A stretch of DNA of 64,000 nt from Planctomycetaceae bacterium (GTDB lineage Bacteria; Planctomycetota; Planctomycetia; Planctomycetales; Planctomycetaceae): NCBI GenBank assembly GCA_046160425.1, contig JBJXGP010000363.1:1061-65060 (forward strand), in the 5' to 3' direction. The notes beneath the pieces are model-generated. The model was not told the DNA's origin and ran no database searches. It saw nothing but the letters and a program-made list of their open reading frames with translations. The translations under genes were made by a program, and so were the position numbers. Shown here one piece after another: positions 23,489 to 32,248 of this stretch. Each line of letters starts with the position of its first letter. The first letter of the stretch is position 1.

Positions 23489-24856
23489 ATGACGACTCGC
23501 AATCCTCACTCGTCCGCACTGCATCTGCGTCGCCGCGAACTATTACAAGTCGGTTCTCTGGGTGCATTCGGGCTGGGACTGCCGCACTGGTTCGCCGGTC
23601 AGGCACACGGCGAGACGACCGGCAAGGCCAAGTCGGTGATTTTGCTCTGGCTGTACGGCGGGCCGAGCCATATCGACACGGTCGACCCCAAGCCGCTGGC
23701 GAATTCGGAAATCCGCAGTCCGTTCAGTCCGATTGATACCTCGGTCCCGGGGATTCAGATTACCGAACTCCTGCCGCAGCTTTCGCAGCGAATCGATCGC
23801 TGTGCGATTCTGCGGGGAATGTATCACGAGAACAGCGATCACAACGTCGGCGGCACGATCGCATTAACGGGCGTCCCCGCGGGGGGAAAGTTAGGCGGCG
23901 GAGCACCGCTCCCCGGCGACCGGCGACCGACACTCGGCTCGCTTGTCACCCGCCTGATCAGCGAACCGTCCCCCGGCTGGCCTGCGTTCATGTGCATCGG
24001 CGCTGAGGCCAAAGTGAGTGGCGGAGCCAGCGGACAAGACGCCGCGAGCTTCGGTGCGATTTACGAACCGTTCCGGCTCGAATACAAACTTGAAAGCGGT
24101 TTGAAAGTTCCCGAAGCCCTCAACCTGATGCCCGGCCTGTCGACCGATCGGCTCGGTGATCGTCGCAGTCTGCTGACGTCGCTCGATGCCTTGACGCAAA
24201 AAACGGGAGCCTCGGATTCGTTTCAGCGACTCGGCCAGTTTTACGATCAGGCGATGGGATTGTTGACCTCGTCCGAGGCACGCAAGGCAGTCGATCTGGA
24301 AGAAGAAACGGTCAAGGTCCGAAACCGATACGGCAAGACCCGCTTCGGTCAATCGTGCCTGCTCGCCCGCCGACTCGTCGAATCGGGGGTTCCCTTCGTG
24401 CAAGTCAACTGGAGCGATCACGGAGAAGATCAGCAGACATCGGGGGGCGACGGAGGCTGGGATCATCACTGGCGATTGTACGAATTCATTCAGGATCATT
24501 GTGCGTGGTCCTACGACCAGGCAATCACCGCGCTGCTCGATGATCTGGAAGAACGCGGCCTGCTTGAAGAAACGCTGGTGTTGGCAATGGGAGAATTCGG
24601 GCGGACACCCAAAATCAACGGCTGCGGCGGACGCGATCACTGGGCCAACGTTTACAGCGTCATGATGGCCGGCGGAGGTGTTCAAGGCGGACGGGTGATC
24701 GGCTCGAGCGATCTGGAAGGGGCCTATCCCGCCGATCGTCCCGTGCATCCGCAAGAGTTGCATGCGACCGTACTCAAAGCGATGGGACTCGATCGACTGG
24801 CGTTGATTCCGTTGGGGGTAACGCTCAACGTCGAACCGGTGGATGAGTTGTTCTGA
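23489..24856 (+). CDS. DUF1501 domain protein (sulfatase-like fold, Tat-type signal)
   Basis: RRRELLQVGSLGAFGLGL...ILLWLYGGPSHIDTVDPKP...GEFGRTPKIN...GRDHW... is the typical DUF1501 pattern. Confidence 0.85.
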   Translation: MTTRNPHSSALHLRRRELLQVGSLGAFGLGLPHWFAGQAHGETTGKAKSVILLWLYGGPSHIDTVDPKPLANSEIRSPFSPIDTSVPGIQITELLPQLSQRIDRCAILRGMYHENSDHNVGGTIALTGVPAGGKLGGGAPLPGDRRPTLGSLVTRLISEPSPGWPAFMCIGAEAKVSGGASGQDAASFGAIYEPFRLEYKLESGLKVPEALNLMPGLSTDRLGDRRSLLTSLDALTQKTGASDSFQRLGQFYDQAMGLLTSSEARKAVDLEEETVKVRNRYGKTRFGQSCLLARRLVESGVPFVQVNWSDHGEDQQTSGGDGGWDHHWRLYEFIQDHCAWSYDQAITALLDDLEERGLLEETLVLAMGEFGRTPKINGCGGRDHWANVYSVMMAGGGVQGGRVIGSSDLEGAYPADRPVHPQELHATVLKAMGLDRLALIPLGVTLNVEPVDELF

Positions 24857-26042: not shown

Positions 26043-27512
26043 ATGACCACCCAGATCCCTTTTAGTTCTCACGGTTCTACGCATCAACAGCATGCCTTCA
26101 CGGGTTTGAACGCCCGCGAGCGTGAAGGGTTGGTGCTGCATAGCCGTCGCAACATGCTCAAGGTCGGCATGGCGGGGCTGGCCGGTTTGACGCTGCCCGA
26201 TTTACTCCGCCTCCGCGCCGAAGCGGCTCAATCGAATCGCCCGATGAACAGTCGCAAGAGCGTGGTCCTGCTCTGGATGGCGGGGGGACCGAGCCACATC
26301 GATACATGGGATCCCAAGCCCGAACGTCCCTACATCAATCGCGGACCGTTCGGCGTCGCACAGACGTCTCTCCCCGGCGTCATCATCAGCGAACATCTCC
26401 CCAAGCAAGCGGCGATGATGGACAAGTTCACGCTCATTCGCTCGGTCGATTGCCGTTTCAGCAATCACGAACCGAATACCGTGATGCAGACCGCGAACCT
26501 TGACGCCGAAGCGCGAACGAATCCCAAGGCGCGGATGTATCCTTCCATCGCGTCGCTGGTGGCGAAATTCCGCGGGCCGAACGATCCTTCGATGCCGCCG
26601 TATGTTGCGTTTCAAAAATCCGCAGGGCATCTCGCATATGGCGGATATCTCGGCAAAGGTTACGACCCGTTTATCGCGAATATGGCGGTCGATCTCCCCG
26701 TTTATACCGACGTCGGCGTCGACACCGGCACGACCACCGGCGCATCGCTTTTCAATTTCGCACAGGGGCTGTCGCACGACCGCATCCAGAATCGTCAGAC
26801 GCTGCTCAAGGACTTCGATCGCCTGCGCAGCGAGATCGACGGCAGCGGGTCAATGGAATCGCTCGACACCTACAGCCAGCAGGCGGTCGACCTCGTCGTC
26901 GGGGGAAAAGCCCGCGATGCGTTCGATATCAGCCAGGAATCGGACGAGACTCGCGCGAAATACGGCAAGCACCTCTGGCTGCAGCAATGTCTGCTGGCCC
27001 GACGTCTCGTCGAAGCGGGGACCAACTTCGTCACCATCGATCTCAGTTATCACGCTGCATCGGGAACGTGGGATACCCACGGCGACAACATCCCCCCCTA
27101 CGGCGGGATCAGAAACGGCCTCGGGCCGCTTCTGCCGTTGTTCGATCATCTGATCACGACTCTCGTCGGCGATCTCGATGAACGGGGGCTGCTGGATGAG
27201 TGCCTCGTCATCGCGATGGGTGAGTTCGGTCGATCTCCAAACATGGGAACGCAAGACAGCGTCGACGGCCGCAATCACTGGCCGGTGGTCATGTCAATTG
27301 CATTGGCCGGCGGTGGTATGCGACACGGACAGGTGATCGGATCCAGCGAATACGACGGAGGAACGATTGCATCACGACCGGTCACTCCGGGAGACCTCGC
27401 CGCCACGATCTATCGGCATATGGAAGTTCCCGTCGACGGTTTTTATCTCGATCCCCGCGGTCGCCCGAACCCGATCGTGAATCAAGGGCATCCGATTGCG
27501 GAGTTGTTCTGA
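26043..27512 (+). CDS. DUF1501 domain protein (second paralogue)
   Basis: RRNMLKVGMAGLAGLTL...VLLWMAGGPSHIDTWDPKP...GEFGRSPNMG...GRNHW... Confidence 0.85.
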   Translation: MTTQIPFSSHGSTHQQHAFTGLNAREREGLVLHSRRNMLKVGMAGLAGLTLPDLLRLRAEAAQSNRPMNSRKSVVLLWMAGGPSHIDTWDPKPERPYINRGPFGVAQTSLPGVIISEHLPKQAAMMDKFTLIRSVDCRFSNHEPNTVMQTANLDAEARTNPKARMYPSIASLVAKFRGPNDPSMPPYVAFQKSAGHLAYGGYLGKGYDPFIANMAVDLPVYTDVGVDTGTTTGASLFNFAQGLSHDRIQNRQTLLKDFDRLRSEIDGSGSMESLDTYSQQAVDLVVGGKARDAFDISQESDETRAKYGKHLWLQQCLLARRLVEAGTNFVTIDLSYHAASGTWDTHGDNIPPYGGIRNGLGPLLPLFDHLITTLVGDLDERGLLDECLVIAMGEFGRSPNMGTQDSVDGRNHWPVVMSIALAGGGMRHGQVIGSSEYDGGTIASRPVTPGDLAATIYRHMEVPVDGFYLDPRGRPNPIVNQGHPIAELF

Positions 27513-27539: not shown

Positions 27540-27758
27540 ATGGAACATCCCATTATCCATTGTGATCCGGAGATTCAGGGAGGCGTTCCTGTTTTTTTTG
27601 GAACGCGCGTTCCCGTGAAGAACCTCTTCGATTATCTGGAATCCGCGTACTCGCTCGAAGATTTTCTGACGGATTTTCCCGCCGTTACCCGTAGTCAAGC
27701 CATTGATGCTTTGGAATTGGCACGCGAGGCGTTGATTCCCCATGCGAATCTTGCTTGA
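27540..27758 (+). CDS. DUF433 domain protein (antitoxin-like)
   Basis: 72 aa: IHCDPEIQGGVPVFFGTRVPVKNLFDYLESAYSLEDFLTDFPAVTRSQAIDAL is the typical DUF433 block. It overlaps the next gene by 17 nt. The region is low in GC. Confidence 0.75.
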   Translation: MEHPIIHCDPEIQGGVPVFFGTRVPVKNLFDYLESAYSLEDFLTDFPAVTRSQAIDALELAREALIPHANLA

Positions 27759-28065
27759 CGAATCCTTGCCCCGTCGTTTAGGACGAGAATTACTTGGTCA
27801 CGACGCGGTTACAGTCACCGAGCGAGGATGGTCTGGAACTAAAAATGGCGACCTATTACGTTTGGCTGCCAGTGAATTTGATGTCTTTCTCACAGCCGAT
27901 CAGAATCTACAGTATCAGCAGAATTTGAGTACGTTGCCGTTGTCAATAATCGTTCTGATCGCTCCGGACAACAAACTTGAAACCCTGTGTCTTTTGGTCC
28001 CTGAGGTTCTTGATCACCTCGCGAATCTCCCATTGCGATCGCTTGTCAACGTCGGTAAACGATAG
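27742..28065 (+). CDS. DUF5615 family PIN-like protein (toxin-like partner of DUF433)
   Basis: MRILLDESLPRRLGRELLGHDAVTVTERGWSGTKNGDLLRLAASEFDVFLTADQNL is the typical DUF5615/Mut7-C-like pattern. Confidence 0.7.
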   Translation: MRILLDESLPRRLGRELLGHDAVTVTERGWSGTKNGDLLRLAASEFDVFLTADQNLQYQQNLSTLPLSIIVLIAPDNKLETLCLLVPEVLDHLANLPLRSLVNVGKR

Positions 28066-28131
28066 CAAGACCACTCCACTTAATTTATCAATTAACGTTC
28101 CGTGAATATTTCCCAATACAAGAATCAAACG

Positions 28132-28350
28132 ATGGTTGCCAGATACACTGCGGTCATCCAACAGTATGGTGAGTGGTGGATCGGCTGGGTGGAAGAAGTA
28201 TCGGGTGTCAATTCACAGGGTGCCTCTCGCGAAGAATTACTCGATAATCTCCGCGACGCTCTGGATGAAGCGATTGAAATGAATCGGGTTGAAGCCCGCT
28301 CGGCGGCGGCAAAAGCCGGTGCATTCGAGGAAGTTGAGTTGGTGCCGTAA
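28132..28350 (+). CDS. hicB: HicB-family antitoxin (short UPF0150-type), no intact HicA partner
   Basis: MVARYTAVIQQYGEWWIGWVEEVSGVNSQGASREELLDNLRDALDEAIEMN is the typical short HicB pattern. The ORF track starts at GTG 28102; I prefer ATG 28132. Confidence 0.7.
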   Translation: MVARYTAVIQQYGEWWIGWVEEVSGVNSQGASREELLDNLRDALDEAIEMNRVEARSAAAKAGAFEEVELVP

Positions 28351-28374: not shown

Positions 28375-28506
28375 GGTCATCCGGGAGACCTCGCCGCCAC
28401 GATCTATCGGCATATGGAAGTTCCGGTCGACGGCTACTACGTCGACCCCCGCGGCCGCCCGGTCCCAATCGTGAACCAGGGGCATCCGATTGTGGAGTTG
28501 TTCTGA
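28375..28506 (+). pseudogene. detached, diverged copy of the last ~43 codons of a DUF1501 gene
   Basis: Aligns base by base with 27380..27512, the 3-prime end of the DUF1501 gene at 26043..27512. There is one 1-nt indel and 15 substitutions. It encodes PGDLAATIYRHMEVPVDGYYVDPRGRPVPIVNQGHPIVELF* versus PGDLAATIYRHMEVPVDGFYLDPRGRPNPIVNQGHPIAELF*. Confidence 0.85.
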
Positions 28507-28519
28507 AGGGGACTCAACG

Positions 28520-28775
28520 ATGTCATTGGCAAACTCGGTCATGAAGGGAGTGATACACGGCAATGTGGTCACACTCGACGAGGACGCTGGCCTGCCGGAC
28601 GGGCAAGAAGTCAATGTGACGCTTCAGCCTATGGCGAAAGCGGAATCTCGCCTCTCCGGGGAAGGACTGCGACAGTCGTTCGGGGCATGGGAGGAGGACT
28701 CCGGCGAGGTTAGATCGGTATTTGGAGTGGAATCGCCAGCAGCGAAAGCTGGGGCGCCCGGGGATTGAAGCGTGA
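28520..28775 (+). pseudogene. small antitoxin-like gene (DUF104-like N-terminus), probably frameshifted near 28699-28709
   Basis: MSLANSVMKGVIHGNVVTLDEDAGLPDGQEVNVTLQP...GEGLRQSFGAWEED, then a low-complexity tail. A second frame open from 28620 encodes ...LDRYLEWNRQQRKLGRPGIEA* and ends in a GTGA stop/start overlap at 28772-28775. Confidence 0.45.
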
Positions 28776-28824: not shown

Positions 28825-30432
28825 TCAATTCACCGCGTGTATGATGTTCACATATCCTTCGGCGCTCAGCATTTCACTGGCCTCTTCAAACGCTTTGTCC
28901 CAAGAAAAAACTTTCGCTTGCTGCCGGTTCACGCAGATCGATTTCACAGTTCGAATATCTTCGACGTCAATTCTGAGCCGAATTTCGTCATTAAGTCGCT
29001 CGATGATTTCCGCGTTGCCGCGAACACAGACGAGTTCGCCATAATACAATGGGCCAATCGGAATAAAGTAAGGTGAAAGCATCGTTGCAGGCAATTTGAG
29101 ATCCAGACCTTTCTTCGGCACTCGAACTTCAGCTCGTAGATCTTCACAAGGGATCTGACGTCGTGCTGCCATCAGCAATTGCGCAGCGGGGCCATATCGC
29201 CTGATGTCAGCGATTGAAACCTCGATCGCATCGTCTACTCCAACCTCCTTACCGAAATCGGCAAAATCGCAACCCAACCGAAGGAGCCGATGCACATCGG
29301 GATGGAGTCCAGTAAGAGGGCCGATGGTGCCGAGTGAAGCGTGTATGTTATTGAACTGCACTTCAATAGATGAAGCGTCGGTTTGAGCTTCAGTGAGAAT
29401 TCGGACAAATGCAAAAGATAAGCGAAGTTCACCGACAGTCAGCGTACGTTCATCCGAAAGATTGCGAAGTGTCAATCGTGCGTCTTTCCCACGTCCCTCG
29501 AGGACTAAATCAATGAGGTCCGACTCAAAGCGAATTATTTCGAACTCTTCTGGAAGCATCGGAAAGGCACTTGCCGAATATCGCATTCTTACTCGTAATG
29601 CAACGGCTTTACCTTGAGCCGAGTCGTTGACGATCAGCGTGGCGGCATTTTGATCTTTCGAGGGACCAATGCTCACCTTTGCGGAATCACCCAAATTAAA
29701 ACGTGCATCGTCGATTTCGATTCCAAATCGTGTGGTTGTGCCACGAACGTTGAATACCTCAACAGATTTATCCAAGCCAACTGCTGCGCGAGCAATCTTG
29801 CGGTAAAGTTCGTCGCGGGTCGCCGCTTGAAAAGTGAATTTAACGTGCTGTGTCGCGTCCTCCATCCCTGCGAGTTCAAACCATTTATGTTTTTGCTTTG
29901 CGTACTCCAGAGCATCATCGCCAACGCATCGATAGATGTGGGTTTTCAAAGACTCTGGATAAGGTGGAGTCAGCAGAACTCCGTCGCCATTCTTGATCGA
30001 AAGGGTACATTTGTTTAACGCCTTGTTTCCGCGCCGGTTTAATTCGAAAAGTCGCTTGAGAATGCGTTCGGTTAAGGCTGCGTCGACATGGATCAGGTGA
30101 ACCTGTTTAGGATCACACGTCGAGGGGTCCAAATCTAGAAAAAGGAAGAACCATGGAAAAACACTTTCAACTGCTTTCTTACAATTGCTCAGCTTTATCG
30201 TATGAGACCTCACGGACTTGGTCGTAGACTTCACTTGAATTTTTGTCTCAAACTGTTTGACGATTTCACCAAACTCTCCGACCTTGCCGTCTTGTCGTGA
30301 AAACTCAAACTGATGATCCCAGCCGTCTCGGTCTCGCTTCACAGGCGTAACCGTGAAGCCGGCAATTGTCCCCCACGATTCTACGACACTTTCGGCGGAG
30401 TCGGATGATCTCGACAAGTATTCCTCCATCAC
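28825..30432 (-). CDS. 535-aa orphan protein: N-terminal DUF4365/Mrr-like PD-(D/E)xK nuclease signature plus ~400 aa uncharacterised region
   Basis: Long uninterrupted ORF in markedly low-GC DNA (about 40-48% on hand-counted lines, versus ~60% in the flanks). The N-terminus ...SAESVVESWGTIAGFTVTPVKRDRDGWDHQFEF...KQFETKIQVKSTTK follows the D..G(W/I)D...E...(I/V)QVKS(T) pattern of DUF4365/Mrr-type restriction-endonuclease-like domains. I recognise nothing in the remainder. Confidence 0.6.
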   Translation of the reverse strand: MMEEYLSRSSDSAESVVESWGTIAGFTVTPVKRDRDGWDHQFEFSRQDGKVGEFGEIVKQFETKIQVKSTTKSVRSHTIKLSNCKKAVESVFPWFFLFLDLDPSTCDPKQVHLIHVDAALTERILKRLFELNRRGNKALNKCTLSIKNGDGVLLTPPYPESLKTHIYRCVGDDALEYAKQKHKWFELAGMEDATQHVKFTFQAATRDELYRKIARAAVGLDKSVEVFNVRGTTTRFGIEIDDARFNLGDSAKVSIGPSKDQNAATLIVNDSAQGKAVALRVRMRYSASAFPMLPEEFEIIRFESDLIDLVLEGRGKDARLTLRNLSDERTLTVGELRLSFAFVRILTEAQTDASSIEVQFNNIHASLGTIGPLTGLHPDVHRLLRLGCDFADFGKEVGVDDAIEVSIADIRRYGPAAQLLMAARRQIPCEDLRAEVRVPKKGLDLKLPATMLSPYFIPIGPLYYGELVCVRGNAEIIERLNDEIRLRIDVEDIRTVKSICVNRQQAKVFSWDKAFEEASEMLSAEGYVNIIHAVN

Positions 30433-30629: not shown

Positions 30630-32063
30630 TCACCCCAACACGCCCCACACAGGCTCGCCGGTAGTCAGCAGATACGGCCGGCCTTCGTTGTCGTGGAGTT
30701 CGGTGCGGGGGTCGATTCCCAGGAGATGGTAGATCGTCGCCGAGAGATCGGCGGGGGTCACTGGATCGCGGAGCGGATATGCCGCCTCTTTGTCGGAAGC
30801 GCCGTATACCGCGCCGCCGGGGAGGCCCGCTCCCGCCAAAATAACAGTGTTGCACGGAGCCCAGTGATCGCGGCCGGCGTTGCTGTTGATCTTCGGGGTG
30901 CGGCCAAATTCGCCCATCCAGACGATGAGCGTGTCATCCCACATGCCGCGCGACTGCAAGTCGTCGATCAATGCCGAAAAGCCGCGATCCAGATTCGGCA
31001 GCAGCTTTTCCTTGAGATCCTTGAAGTTGTTCGCGTGCGTATCCCAATACGCGTCGTCTCGCTCCCAGTTGACCGTGACGAGCGAGACCCCGGCTTCCAG
31101 CAATCGCCTCGCGAGCAGGCATCCCTGACCGAACGGCGTGCGTCCGAAATTGTCGCGGAGTGTTTCCGATTCCGCCGAGAGATCGAAGGCGCGGCTGACG
31201 GATGACGACGTCAACAGATCGAATGCCTGATCGTATTGCGTCCGCAGATCGACGACGTGCGATTCGTTTTGCACACGGACAAAATCGAGTTCCATCCGCC
31301 GCAATAACTCGCGGCGGTCGAGCAGTCGTTCCAGACGGTCTTGCCGCGAGAACGGGGCGAAATCGATCTTGTGCGGGGCATCGGAGACGAACAGCGGATC
31401 GTAACGGGTGCCGAGATATCCGCCGAAAAAACCGGGGAAGATATGATTGTTCGCCGAGACCTGATTCGCCGGCGCATTGAGACTGACGGCGTGCGGAAGC
31501 CCCACAAGTTTCGCCGCTCTTTCGTCGCGCGATTCAGAGTCTGCACGATCGATTTGCTGATTCGCCTCGTGAAGGTAATTCACGACCGAACCGAAGCAGG
31601 GGGTATCGTCTGGCGAGTTTTGCGGATTGGTCGCCGGTCGGCGATGCCGCACTCCGGTGAGCATCGCGTGCATAGCGACGGTGTGCGTGTTGTCGGGATG
31701 CGTCACCGAACGGAGTTGACAGAGGTGCTGAGTGCGTTGCGAGAGCATCGGCAGATGTTCGCAGACCTGCATGCCGGGGGTGGCCGATGCGATCGGCGAG
31801 AACTCCCCACGAATTTCGACGGGTGAAGCGGGTTTCAAATCCCAGGTGTCCTGATGGGCGGGGGCACCGAACATGAAGAGCACGATGCAACGTTTAGCCC
31901 GGCCGAATGACGAACCGTGAGCTGCGCGGAGATCCGGCTCACCGAGAACTCGGCCGACATGCAAATCGGGGAGGGTCAGACCGATTCCGCCCAGTCCGCC
32001 GATGGCGAGCCAATCCCGGCGGGAGAGTTGCCAACGGCTCGGTGTGCGATGAATGCGATTCAT
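30630..32063 (-). CDS. DUF1501 domain protein (third paralogue)
   Basis: SRRDWLAIGGLGGIGL...IVLFMFGAPAHQDTWDLKP...GEFGRTPKINSNAGRDHW... Start placed at MNRIHRT (ATG 32063); the ORF track extends to 32132. Confidence 0.85.
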   Translation of the reverse strand: MNRIHRTPSRWQLSRRDWLAIGGLGGIGLTLPDLHVGRVLGEPDLRAAHGSSFGRAKRCIVLFMFGAPAHQDTWDLKPASPVEIRGEFSPIASATPGMQVCEHLPMLSQRTQHLCQLRSVTHPDNTHTVAMHAMLTGVRHRRPATNPQNSPDDTPCFGSVVNYLHEANQQIDRADSESRDERAAKLVGLPHAVSLNAPANQVSANNHIFPGFFGGYLGTRYDPLFVSDAPHKIDFAPFSRQDRLERLLDRRELLRRMELDFVRVQNESHVVDLRTQYDQAFDLLTSSSVSRAFDLSAESETLRDNFGRTPFGQGCLLARRLLEAGVSLVTVNWERDDAYWDTHANNFKDLKEKLLPNLDRGFSALIDDLQSRGMWDDTLIVWMGEFGRTPKINSNAGRDHWAPCNTVILAGAGLPGGAVYGASDKEAAYPLRDPVTPADLSATIYHLLGIDPRTELHDNEGRPYLLTTGEPVWGVLG

Positions 32064-32248
32064 GGGGAGAATCGATCCTGGGAAATCGTAAGACGGTTGA
32101 TACGTGCCGATTCGTGGATAAGATGACTGCAATGCCAGTCTATCCCACCAATTCAGGGATTGTCGAGTCCGAAGATCGCTTCCGGGGGAAGTAACGGGGA
32201 GAATGCGAAAAATTCAGCAGAAGTACCGAACTGGCATCCATCGGTTGC

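Follow-up and report, generated by a model that had tools for sequence, protein, structure and literature searches.

The best-described proteins with which the subject of this report can be compared are those that carry a DREN, or DUF4365, nuclease domain. That subject is a 535-amino-acid (aa) protein encoded on the reverse strand, at 28825..30432, of a 64,000-nucleotide (nt) stretch of DNA from a Planctomycetaceae bacterium (contig JBJXGP010000363.1), the whole of which is called the window below. Taken on its own, the DREN domain of SPARDA is a monomer without activity, and it acts as a collateral DNase and RNase only as a D2 tetramer forced by target-induced filaments; the catalytic residues of the NbaSPARDA domain are D41, Q60 and K62, and the authors of that work noted that DREN resembles I-Ssp6803I, both forming D2 tetramers (PMC12205087). 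In the DUF4365 toxin EAT16, the residues of a DxGxD...QxK motif are required for toxicity (PMC11297309), and Divona, which combines DUF4365 with crr6, is listed with other anti-phage defence systems from the integron cassettes of Vibrio (10.1101/2024.07.02.601686). The protein from the window appears to join the same effector domain to a large partner module of an undescribed kind, and we regard it as a candidate defence protein in which nuclease and sensor would be carried by a single gene.

The initial annotation saw a DUF4365/Mrr-like nuclease signature at the N-terminus. The DUF4365 half of that reading stood, by way of the protein's homologues and of its fold, and the Mrr half fell away, as did any direct match. 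The protein itself finds neither DUF4365 nor Mrr_cat in Pfam (hmmscan, E<=10; the only hit, to BibA_N, is spurious) and has no match among the NCBIfam models or the sequences of the PDB. We therefore give here what was obtained with the family alignment, which consists of the protein and 60 representatives of its relatives (61 sequences). The Pfam model for DUF4365 (PF14280) is matched by 10 of the 61 full-length homologues, with a best E of 3.5e-6, and the model for Mrr_cat (PF04471) by neither the target protein nor any of the 61. Compared by hhalign with 44 SPARDA DREN domains, the family's N-terminus gave a probability of 96.6% (E 5e-10, 89 columns) against 0.1-0.2% for the controls; the 44 intact DREN-APAZ genes had been gathered by a metagenome scan with the Argonaute (pAgo) piece of a decayed SPARDA locus, L086, to which we return below. 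Among PDB sequences the N-terminal profile found a single match, 9qbp_A, itself a 'DUF4365 domain-containing protein', in an alignment that pairs G-E with G-E, D39 with the Asp of 'GTD', and QVK with QVK.

The structural comparison leads to the same proteins. It was made with an AlphaFold2 model built on the family alignment (mean pLDDT 93.6, pTM 0.79), a single-sequence model having been discarded at a pLDDT of 37. In the model used, the domain opens with helix alpha1 (residues 2-23), continues through strands at 27-30, 40-45, 59-70 and 76-80, a helix at 81-89 and further strands at 94-101 and 108-115, and closes with a helix at 118-133, an order of elements that agrees with the one described for the DREN domain; D39 stands where beta2 starts, and Q66 and K68 are on beta3. 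The top 11 Foldseek matches in the PDB are all SPARDA DREN-APAZ chains (from entries 9qcc, 9vx6, 9jt2, 9jsz and 9qbp), at probability 1.0 and with E down to 1.8e-5; the match to 9jt2_F is confined to the domain and covers 113 columns at a root-mean-square deviation of 3.5 A. The same search found EcoRV (2rve) and I-Ssp6803I (2ost, probability 0.91), the latter sharing the core fold (target TM-score 0.44, the target here being the PDB entry). I-Ssp6803I is, however, a stand-alone, intron-encoded enzyme of 150 residues, while the present protein is a free-standing one of 535 with no intron or homing context. Among the viral models of BFVD, the matches at probability 1.0 are small phage proteins, and those that carry an annotation are of the PD-(D/E)xK type.

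Aligned with the SPARDA domain, D39, Q66 and K68 fall on the catalytic D41, Q60 and K62 of NbaSPARDA. The catalytic DxGxD...QxK pattern is thus present with a shift of one residue in its first acidic position (D34-x-x-G37-W-D39), a variant specific to this family. D34, W38, D39, Q66 and K68 are invariant in all 61 members, which puts the motif far beyond chance, and G37 is conserved in at least 90% of the family. D36, which had been put forward as a site for mutation, is not conserved and would be better replaced in that role by D34, since D34 and D39 are the two invariant aspartates. The glutamate of alpha1, E14, reaches at least 90% conservation in the close subgroup only, and is mostly E across the 61 sequences. 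From alignment and model together, the putative active site is predicted to comprise E14, D39 and Q66/K68. On four independent lines (the Pfam matches of homologues, the hhalign comparison, the structural model and the alignment with 9qbp_A), the N-terminus is assigned, if indirectly, to the DREN/DUF4365 domains of the PD-(D/E)xK class by profile, motif and fold, though it lies below Pfam's own model.

The likeness to the DREN-APAZ proteins of NbaSPARDA, XauSPARDA and E. aerosaccus SPARDA, which provide both the best structural matches and the profile-profile match of the family, extends to the D...QxK arrangement and to the G-E motif in alpha1. The differences begin with the acidic motif, DxxGWD rather than DxGxD, and go on to the remainder of the protein, where some 400 residues after the DREN domain form another module, of a kind not yet described. 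In addition, the SPARDA DREN domain sits on a flexible linker, whereas the model of the present protein is compact. The gene is solitary, and since it has no pAgo nearby and no APAZ detectable by sequence, the protein is not a component of SPARDA. One might still suppose it to be related to the SPARDA effector but independent of Argonaute; what follows DREN would then be a divergent APAZ-like scaffold, and the pAgo would either be encoded at another site or have been replaced by the protein's own C-terminal domain. The Foldseek results invite this: the PDB chains that match best are DREN-APAZ proteins in their entirety, the alignment exceeds 500 columns for 8 of the top 11, and E improves with alignment length, from 5.5e-3 (113 columns, DREN only) through 3.8e-4 (210) to 1.8e-5 (534). 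For these reasons the likeness of the region to APAZ was tested. Residues 136-535, aligned by hhalign with the APAZ part of the 44 DREN-APAZ proteins, gave a probability of 0.2% and an E of 0.28, the same as the negative controls; the TM-scores of about 0.2 are what the DREN domain contributes alone; and the protein is some 90 residues longer than DREN-APAZ. Hidden Markov models (HMMs) of APAZ and of short pAgo, the latter built from up to 50 of 68 pAgo open reading frames (ORFs) of SPARDA loci, find nothing in the ORFs of the 85 loci surveyed below, nor in the 64-kb window when it is translated in all six frames. We hold such an origin to be unlikely.

The decayed SPARDA locus mentioned above, present in L086 and L087 (5001-6342), deserves a word of its own. 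It begins with a DREN stub of 100 aa, 82% identical to the N-terminus of the E. aerosaccus DREN-APAZ protein, behind which the last 350 aa of a short Argonaute are encoded in another frame (they match residues 137-484 of 9qbp_B at E 2e-205). The stub is joined directly to the C-terminal part of the pAgo, so both loci have lost the APAZ domain and the beginning of the pAgo by deletion. A 60-aa DREN fragment taken from the 9qbp_A alignment and used as a query returned truncated proteins of 105 aa or less and nothing longer, and some 40 similar DUF4365 fragments are present in the protein database.

For the 400 or so residues after the DREN domain, the statement that they match no known family was confirmed. 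No Pfam, NCBIfam or PADLOC family is found there in any of the 61 members, no PHROGs match in the target, nothing credible among PDB sequences with the family profile, and no confident Foldseek neighbour in the PDB or BFVD apart from the SPARDA chains. A search with a profile of the C-terminal part alone, aimed at finding the module on other effectors, brought 2 matches and was uninformative. Conservation falls steadily along the protein, from 2.0 bits per column in residues 1-135 to 1.5 in 136-330 and 1.1 in 331-535, a gradient that fits what is expected of an effector that stays fixed while its sensor diversifies. In 90% of the family this last region is acidic (median isoelectric point 5.35, median net charge -6), with the DREN and middle regions neutral, and it is confidently folded in the model, with a pLDDT above 90 over most of its length. 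That a module of an undescribed type is present is plain from these results; that it has a regulatory or sensor role we infer.

Low-probability Foldseek matches to sliding clamps cover 300-520 columns over residues of about 190 to 535, and include DnaN (6deg, 5fve, 5ah4), the 9-1-1 clamp (8fs6) and phage beta-clamps of BFVD. Their probabilities are 0.14 or less, and hhalign detects no internal repeat or clamp-like duplication within residues 136-535, so this likeness was dropped as evidence; it may reflect a repeated beta-alpha-beta-beta-beta topology in the model, or noise.

The gene had been called an orphan, and a word-index homologue search with the protein did match nothing except itself. 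An exhaustive HMMER search of 1.84 billion cluster representatives tells otherwise: 1,219 match at E<=1e-3, 626 at E<=1e-10 and 23 at E<=1e-30. The protein is thus one of a family that comprises 1,219 or more clusters at 50% identity, many of them matched over nearly the full length. Among the 150 matches listed, most are 510-560 aa long, and for many the alignment spans residues 10 to 530 or thereabouts; most database homologues align up to about residue 310-360. The few among these top 150 that have no DREN domain resemble truncated gene calls. The nearest relatives are 33-34% identical over the full-length match, the nearest of all (P0002) covering residues 10-533. Twelve positions are invariant in the 61 sequences, namely, besides the five motif residues given above, P93, Y177, K181, G189, G219, R235 and F236.

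The hosts are scattered across phyla in a patchy manner, and include Acinetobacter (baumannii, pittii, seifertii and others), Halomonas, Marinobacter, Shewanella, Desulfobulbales, Burkholderiales, many cyanobacteria, Sedimentisphaerales and Planctomycetota, and Sorangium, among others. Ten plasmids also carry family members, among them plasmids from Klebsiella variicola, Pectobacterium, Legionella and Rhizobiales, as do 8 IMG/VR contigs; the K. variicola copy (WP_012540091.1) lies on plasmid pKP187. A tblastn search of GenBank phage records for the family found no match, nor did a DNA-level search of complete E. coli genomes with the Klebsiella homologue. Members go by the name of 'hypothetical protein' or 'DUF4365 domain-containing protein', the latter being the NCBI name of those in Acinetobacter, and we found no published account of this architecture in the open-access literature.

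The gene in the window was described at the outset as a clean, low-GC ORF of foreign composition, and all of this is borne out. The ORF is intact and uninterrupted and yields 535 aa from the GTG at 30432. NCBI annotates a product of 530 aa ('MAG: hypothetical protein ACKVT0_15855 [Planctomycetaceae bacterium]', where MAG stands for metagenome-assembled genome), a length that fits a start at TTG 30417, and GGAGG stands 5 nt upstream of that codon. At 48.5% GC against a window mean of 56.1% (standard deviation 2.2 points for stretches of 1608 nt), the gene is the GC minimum among all 1608-nt windows of the 64 kb. Its GC at third codon positions (GC3) is 0.48, as compared with 0.67-0.71 in six native genes that include both flanking DUF1501 genes, whose overall GC is 0.597 and 0.605. 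The gene is foreign in composition and horizontally acquired. Neither a sigma-70-like promoter nor a terminator was found for it, which is uninformative in a planctomycete, and no tRNA that might have served as an integration site lies within the 64-kb window.

To see how the family behaves elsewhere, 85 loci (L001-L085) were surveyed. Eighty of them (L006-L085) are genome loci found by a scan with an Acinetobacter-type subgroup, A3; they hold relatives that are about 20-25% identical to the target and not its nearest kin. A genome scan with the close subgroup, A2, found nothing. The low GC content recurs throughout. Wherever 4 kb or more of flanking sequence was available, at 73 loci, the family gene has in every case a lower GC content than its flanks, by 10.5 points on average, and the difference is below -3 points in 65 of the 73 and above +3 in none; low GC is therefore a trait of the family and not only of this window. 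It holds across hosts of very different composition, with Acinetobacter genes at 0.26-0.29 (0.29 vs 0.42 for gene and flank) and Halomonas and Marinobacter genes at 0.36-0.39 in hosts of 0.52-0.64. Such a universal AT bias may point to a low-GC origin, to xenogeneic silencing or to selection on the gene itself. When all ORFs of the 85 loci were clustered, no conserved partner gene emerged outside an Acinetobacter synteny block, and same-strand neighbours at a gap under 50 nt are few (14 of 81 upstream, 17 of 78 downstream). With no common partner and few tight same-strand neighbours, the gene is therefore to be seen as a single-gene unit.

What does recur in the vicinity is a mixture. Among the immediate neighbours are some with strong matches to the PADLOC models GajA, IetS, PD-T4-6, AbiEi, PD-Lambda-2, PDC-S46 and a Type II methyltransferase (MTase_II); others are phage integrases, HigB toxins and housekeeping enzymes. 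Further loci with Pfam annotation are listed at the end of Table 1. In two of these, L179 (1973-2479) and L180 (9781-10701), FRG-domain (PF08867) proteins lie a few genes from the family gene; the two are unrelated, one being a Sorangium cellulosum chromosome and the other a forest-soil contig, and the link may be a coincidence or a loose association.

Divona likewise consists of an N-terminal DUF4365 nuclease and a second domain in one gene, a comparison made by description; the lack of crr6 shows that the present protein is not Divona, crr6 (PF08847) being found in none of the 61 family members (E<=0.01). PADLOC's PDC-M02A, a protein of about 167 aa, gives the only PADLOC matches, all of them weak, over DREN residues 13-75, at E 0.004-0.04 for the target and in 7 of 61 homologues (best 1.9e-4). 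It is, in contrast, a short, domain-sized protein, and the target has 400 residues more and no conserved partner. We take the 'M' prefix of its name to mark a multi-gene system. Membership in PDC-M02 was rejected on scores that are too weak and limited to the domain, and on the lack of a partner component. Classical Type II restriction-modification was likewise set aside, there being no cognate methyltransferase beside the gene and no conserved neighbour.

A restriction-like enzyme that works without a methyltransferase, whether of Type IV (modification-dependent) or like Type IIS, is harder to dismiss. The C-terminal 400 residues would then bind a feature of the DNA, for instance a modified base or a structure, and the DREN domain would cut the bound DNA directly, with neither abortive infection nor an oligomeric switch. 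A PD-(D/E)xK nuclease with a large variable domain in a solitary gene would suit such an enzyme. So would the lack of a conserved methyltransferase partner (DNA_methylase occurs in only 1 of 114 immediate neighbours, and none stands beside the target gene in the window), the HsdR genes of Type I systems or Mrr_cat genes that adjoin some homologues, and the sequence-specific cleavage of DNA by the structural relative I-Ssp6803I. Modification-dependent enzymes that combine nuclease and sensor, such as the END nucleases, are moreover a known design. Two features speak to the contrary: the acidity of the C-terminal region in nine-tenths of the members is atypical of a DNA-recognition domain, and no known domain for DNA binding or base flipping (SRA, helix-turn-helix, winged helix, EndoIII) was detected in the 61 members or by Foldseek. 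We give this reading a modest chance. The END nucleases are not kin of DREN; they are unrelated, and the names overlap through 'DrEndoIII' only.

The function we favour, with a little more confidence than doubt, is that of a single-gene, invader-triggered nuclease of a mobile accessory family, directed against phages or plasmids. The N-terminal DREN domain would be its effector, kept off by the middle and C-terminal regions. The C-terminal module would detect some cue from an invading phage or plasmid, and because the module is acidic this cue would more probably be a protein or a change of state than DNA. Detection might then lead to the assembly of DREN domains into an active oligomer, or to their release through a change of conformation, and the active enzyme would degrade DNA, possibly RNA as well, non-specifically, so that the invader is destroyed or the infection aborted. 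Trigger, oligomerisation and defence phenotype alike we infer from the comparisons given above. A bolder version, in which the module of about 400 aa is a new invader sensor, perhaps distantly APAZ-like, that switches a collateral DREN nuclease by self-assembly with neither Argonaute nor guide, seems to us doubtful.

Several observations weigh against a role in immunity. In the open-access literature we found no published test of activity, toxicity or phage protection for any member of the family. The protein has no significant PADLOC match, the weak one to PDC-M02A being confined to the DREN region. In the window its immediate neighbours are genes of toxin-antitoxin type and DUF1501 genes, with no recognised defence system or island, and the defence genes that adjoin homologues elsewhere were recorded locus by locus. 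Many homologues stand beside housekeeping genes, such as those for serine dehydratase, acetate kinase and, in Acinetobacter, aconitase. As to mechanism, activation may not proceed by assembly in the manner of SPARDA, which the model makes doubtful because its pTM suggests a compact protein and not a flexibly tethered DREN domain.

It is in Acinetobacter that the gene looks resident rather than mobile, and this one lineage likewise tells against the proposal. In nine genomes (L006-L014: Acinetobacter geminorum, pittii, courvalinii, gen. sp. 15BJ, brisouii, silvestris and MAGs) the family gene lies directly downstream of that for aconitase (868 aa, PF00330/PF00694), at protein identities of 56-98%, and in most of them a conserved ORF of about 191 aa comes next. 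The synteny holds in at least seven Acinetobacter species, though even there the gene is still 13 GC points under its flanks. A. baumannii has a variant, P0193, seen on 246 contigs. These data are what one would expect of a housekeeping or element-maintenance nuclease, active in recombination, repair or homing, resident in some lineages and without an immune role; the resemblance of the DREN fold to Holliday-junction resolvases and to a homing endonuclease would agree with this. Such a nuclease should not, however, be AT-richer than its host surroundings at every one of the 73 loci, or show so patchy a phyletic spread, carriage on plasmids and so rapidly diverging a C-terminus; nor is the family among curated housekeeping families or associated with introns, inteins or repeated insertion sites. 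We consider a role of this kind very improbable.

The surroundings of the gene in the window (Table 1) had been summarised as intact and decayed toxin-antitoxin genes on the opposite strand. The intact DUF433 and DUF5615/PIN_10 pair, likewise low in GC (GC3 0.47-0.48), and a weakly HicB-like ORF support the first part of that description. No ORF of hicA size lies between 28066 and 28101, which leaves the HicB-like ORF without such a partner. The element taken for a decayed gene is instead a duplicated 3' end of DUF1501: the DUF1501 gene at 26043..27512 has its final 127 nt repeated 994 nt downstream, in a second copy that still encodes DLAATIYRHMEVPVDGYYVDPRGRPVPIVNQGHPIVELF*. As to strand, the description applies to the left-hand neighbours only; the right-hand neighbour, a DUF1501 gene at 30630..32132, lies 197 nt upstream of the target gene and on the same strand.

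The two copies of the 127-nt repeat flank the low-GC cassette of the DUF433/PIN pair and the HicB-like ORF, and the target gene stands just beyond the right-hand copy. From its sequence, the repeat pair looks like the outcome of integration into the 3' end of a gene with the frame restored, in the manner of attL and attR; no integrase accompanies it. The right-hand copy ends inside a 92-aa ORF at 28490-28768 that matches no family (MSLANSVMKGVIHGNVVTLDEDAGLPDGQEVNVTLQP...); this ORF and the HicB-like one may be remnants of further toxin-antitoxin modules. Three DUF1501 paralogues (23489-24856, 26043-27512 and 30630-32132) are found within 9 kb, two of them convergent around the low-GC insert; a cluster of this kind is typical of Planctomycetota and agrees with the NCBI attribution of the contig.

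Table 1. Positions in the 64-kb window of the gene, its predicted parts and its left-hand neighbours, followed by neighbours of family genes at other loci.
Feature	Position	Strand	Remarks
Complete coding sequence of the DREN-fusion protein	28825..30432	-	Stop codon 28825-28827; alternative starts ATG 30429, TTG 30417
Predicted N-terminal DREN/DUF4365-type PD-(D/E)xK domain, aa 1-135	30028..30432	-	By profile, fold and motif; most conserved part
D34-R-D-G-W-D39 motif	30316..30333	-	D39, where beta2 starts, is predicted to be the catalytic Asp that binds metal
Q66-V-K68, QxK form of the (D/E)xK motif	30229..30237	-	On beta3; invariant in the family
Conserved middle region, aa 136-330, alpha/beta	29443..30027	-	Invariant Y177, K181, G189, G219, R235, F236; near-invariant R301
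Variable acidic C-terminal region, aa 331-535	28828..29442	-	Lowest conservation; candidate sensor or specificity module
DUF433 and DUF5615/PIN_10 pair of toxin-antitoxin type, intact	27540..28065	+	DUF433 27540-27758; DUF5615/PIN_10 27742-28065
Small ORF, weak UPF0150/HicB-like match	28102..28350	+	E 0.001, 19.4 bits, under the Pfam cutoff of 27.3 bits
Duplicated DUF1501 3' end, 127 nt, stop codon included	28380..28506	+	89% identical to 27386-27512
Neighbours at L001			Unremarkable metabolic context with Roc/COR (precomputed Pfam annotation)
Neighbours at L002			HsdR, HEPN_AbiU2, AAA and Peptidase_S8 pair (precomputed Pfam annotation)
Neighbours at L003-5			AAA_21/RloB, Mrr_cat (precomputed Pfam annotation)
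Neighbours at L179, L180			IS21, FRG-domain proteins (precomputed Pfam annotation)
Neighbours at L181			DUF87 and NERD, NOV_C (precomputed Pfam annotation)

The position of the gene among genes of toxin-antitoxin type raises the question of whether the protein is itself a toxin, either secreted or injected like EAT16 (by an extracellular contractile injection system, eCIS, or a type VI secretion system, T6SS), or else the cargo of a mobile element or an addiction module with a distant antitoxin. EAT16, the eCIS-associated toxin of Photorhabdus (WP_082303719.1), is also a two-domain protein with an N-terminal DUF4365 encoded in one gene, and it kills E. coli in a motif-dependent manner; plasmid copies of the present family lie near integrase remnants and a colicin-like gene. 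The likeness to EAT16 is one of description of the DUF4365 domain, and the family is unlike it in having no eCIS context. No conserved secretion, eCIS, T6SS or immunity/antitoxin gene is present in the 85 loci, and Pfam finds no trafficking or marker domain in the family, signal peptides not having been searched for. We regard a toxin as quite unlikely, and return to the immune protein as the preferred reading.

PD-(D/E)xK nucleases fused to unknown domains are common in defence genomics. To our knowledge, the mechanism of DREN/DUF4365 has so far been demonstrated only in the Argonaute-controlled effector of SPARDA. Here the same catalytic domain, as predicted, is met in a large family of solitary genes, foreign in base composition and recurring beside defence and mobile genes. 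Should it prove not to act in immunity, it would still be a family of nucleases that lacks annotation and merits a name. If the role in immunity holds, the family would constitute a single-gene system that is new, as would be the fold of its sensor, and offer a simple model for the off/on control of a DREN nuclease, and it would be present in clinically relevant hosts for which phage therapy is considered (A. baumannii, and K. variicola with pKP187). And were the module to switch the nuclease by self-assembly, the principle of the SPARDA effector, a DREN domain active only when oligomerised, would also exist as a widespread, autonomous single-gene immunity, from Acinetobacter baumannii and Klebsiella plasmids to the Planctomycetes.

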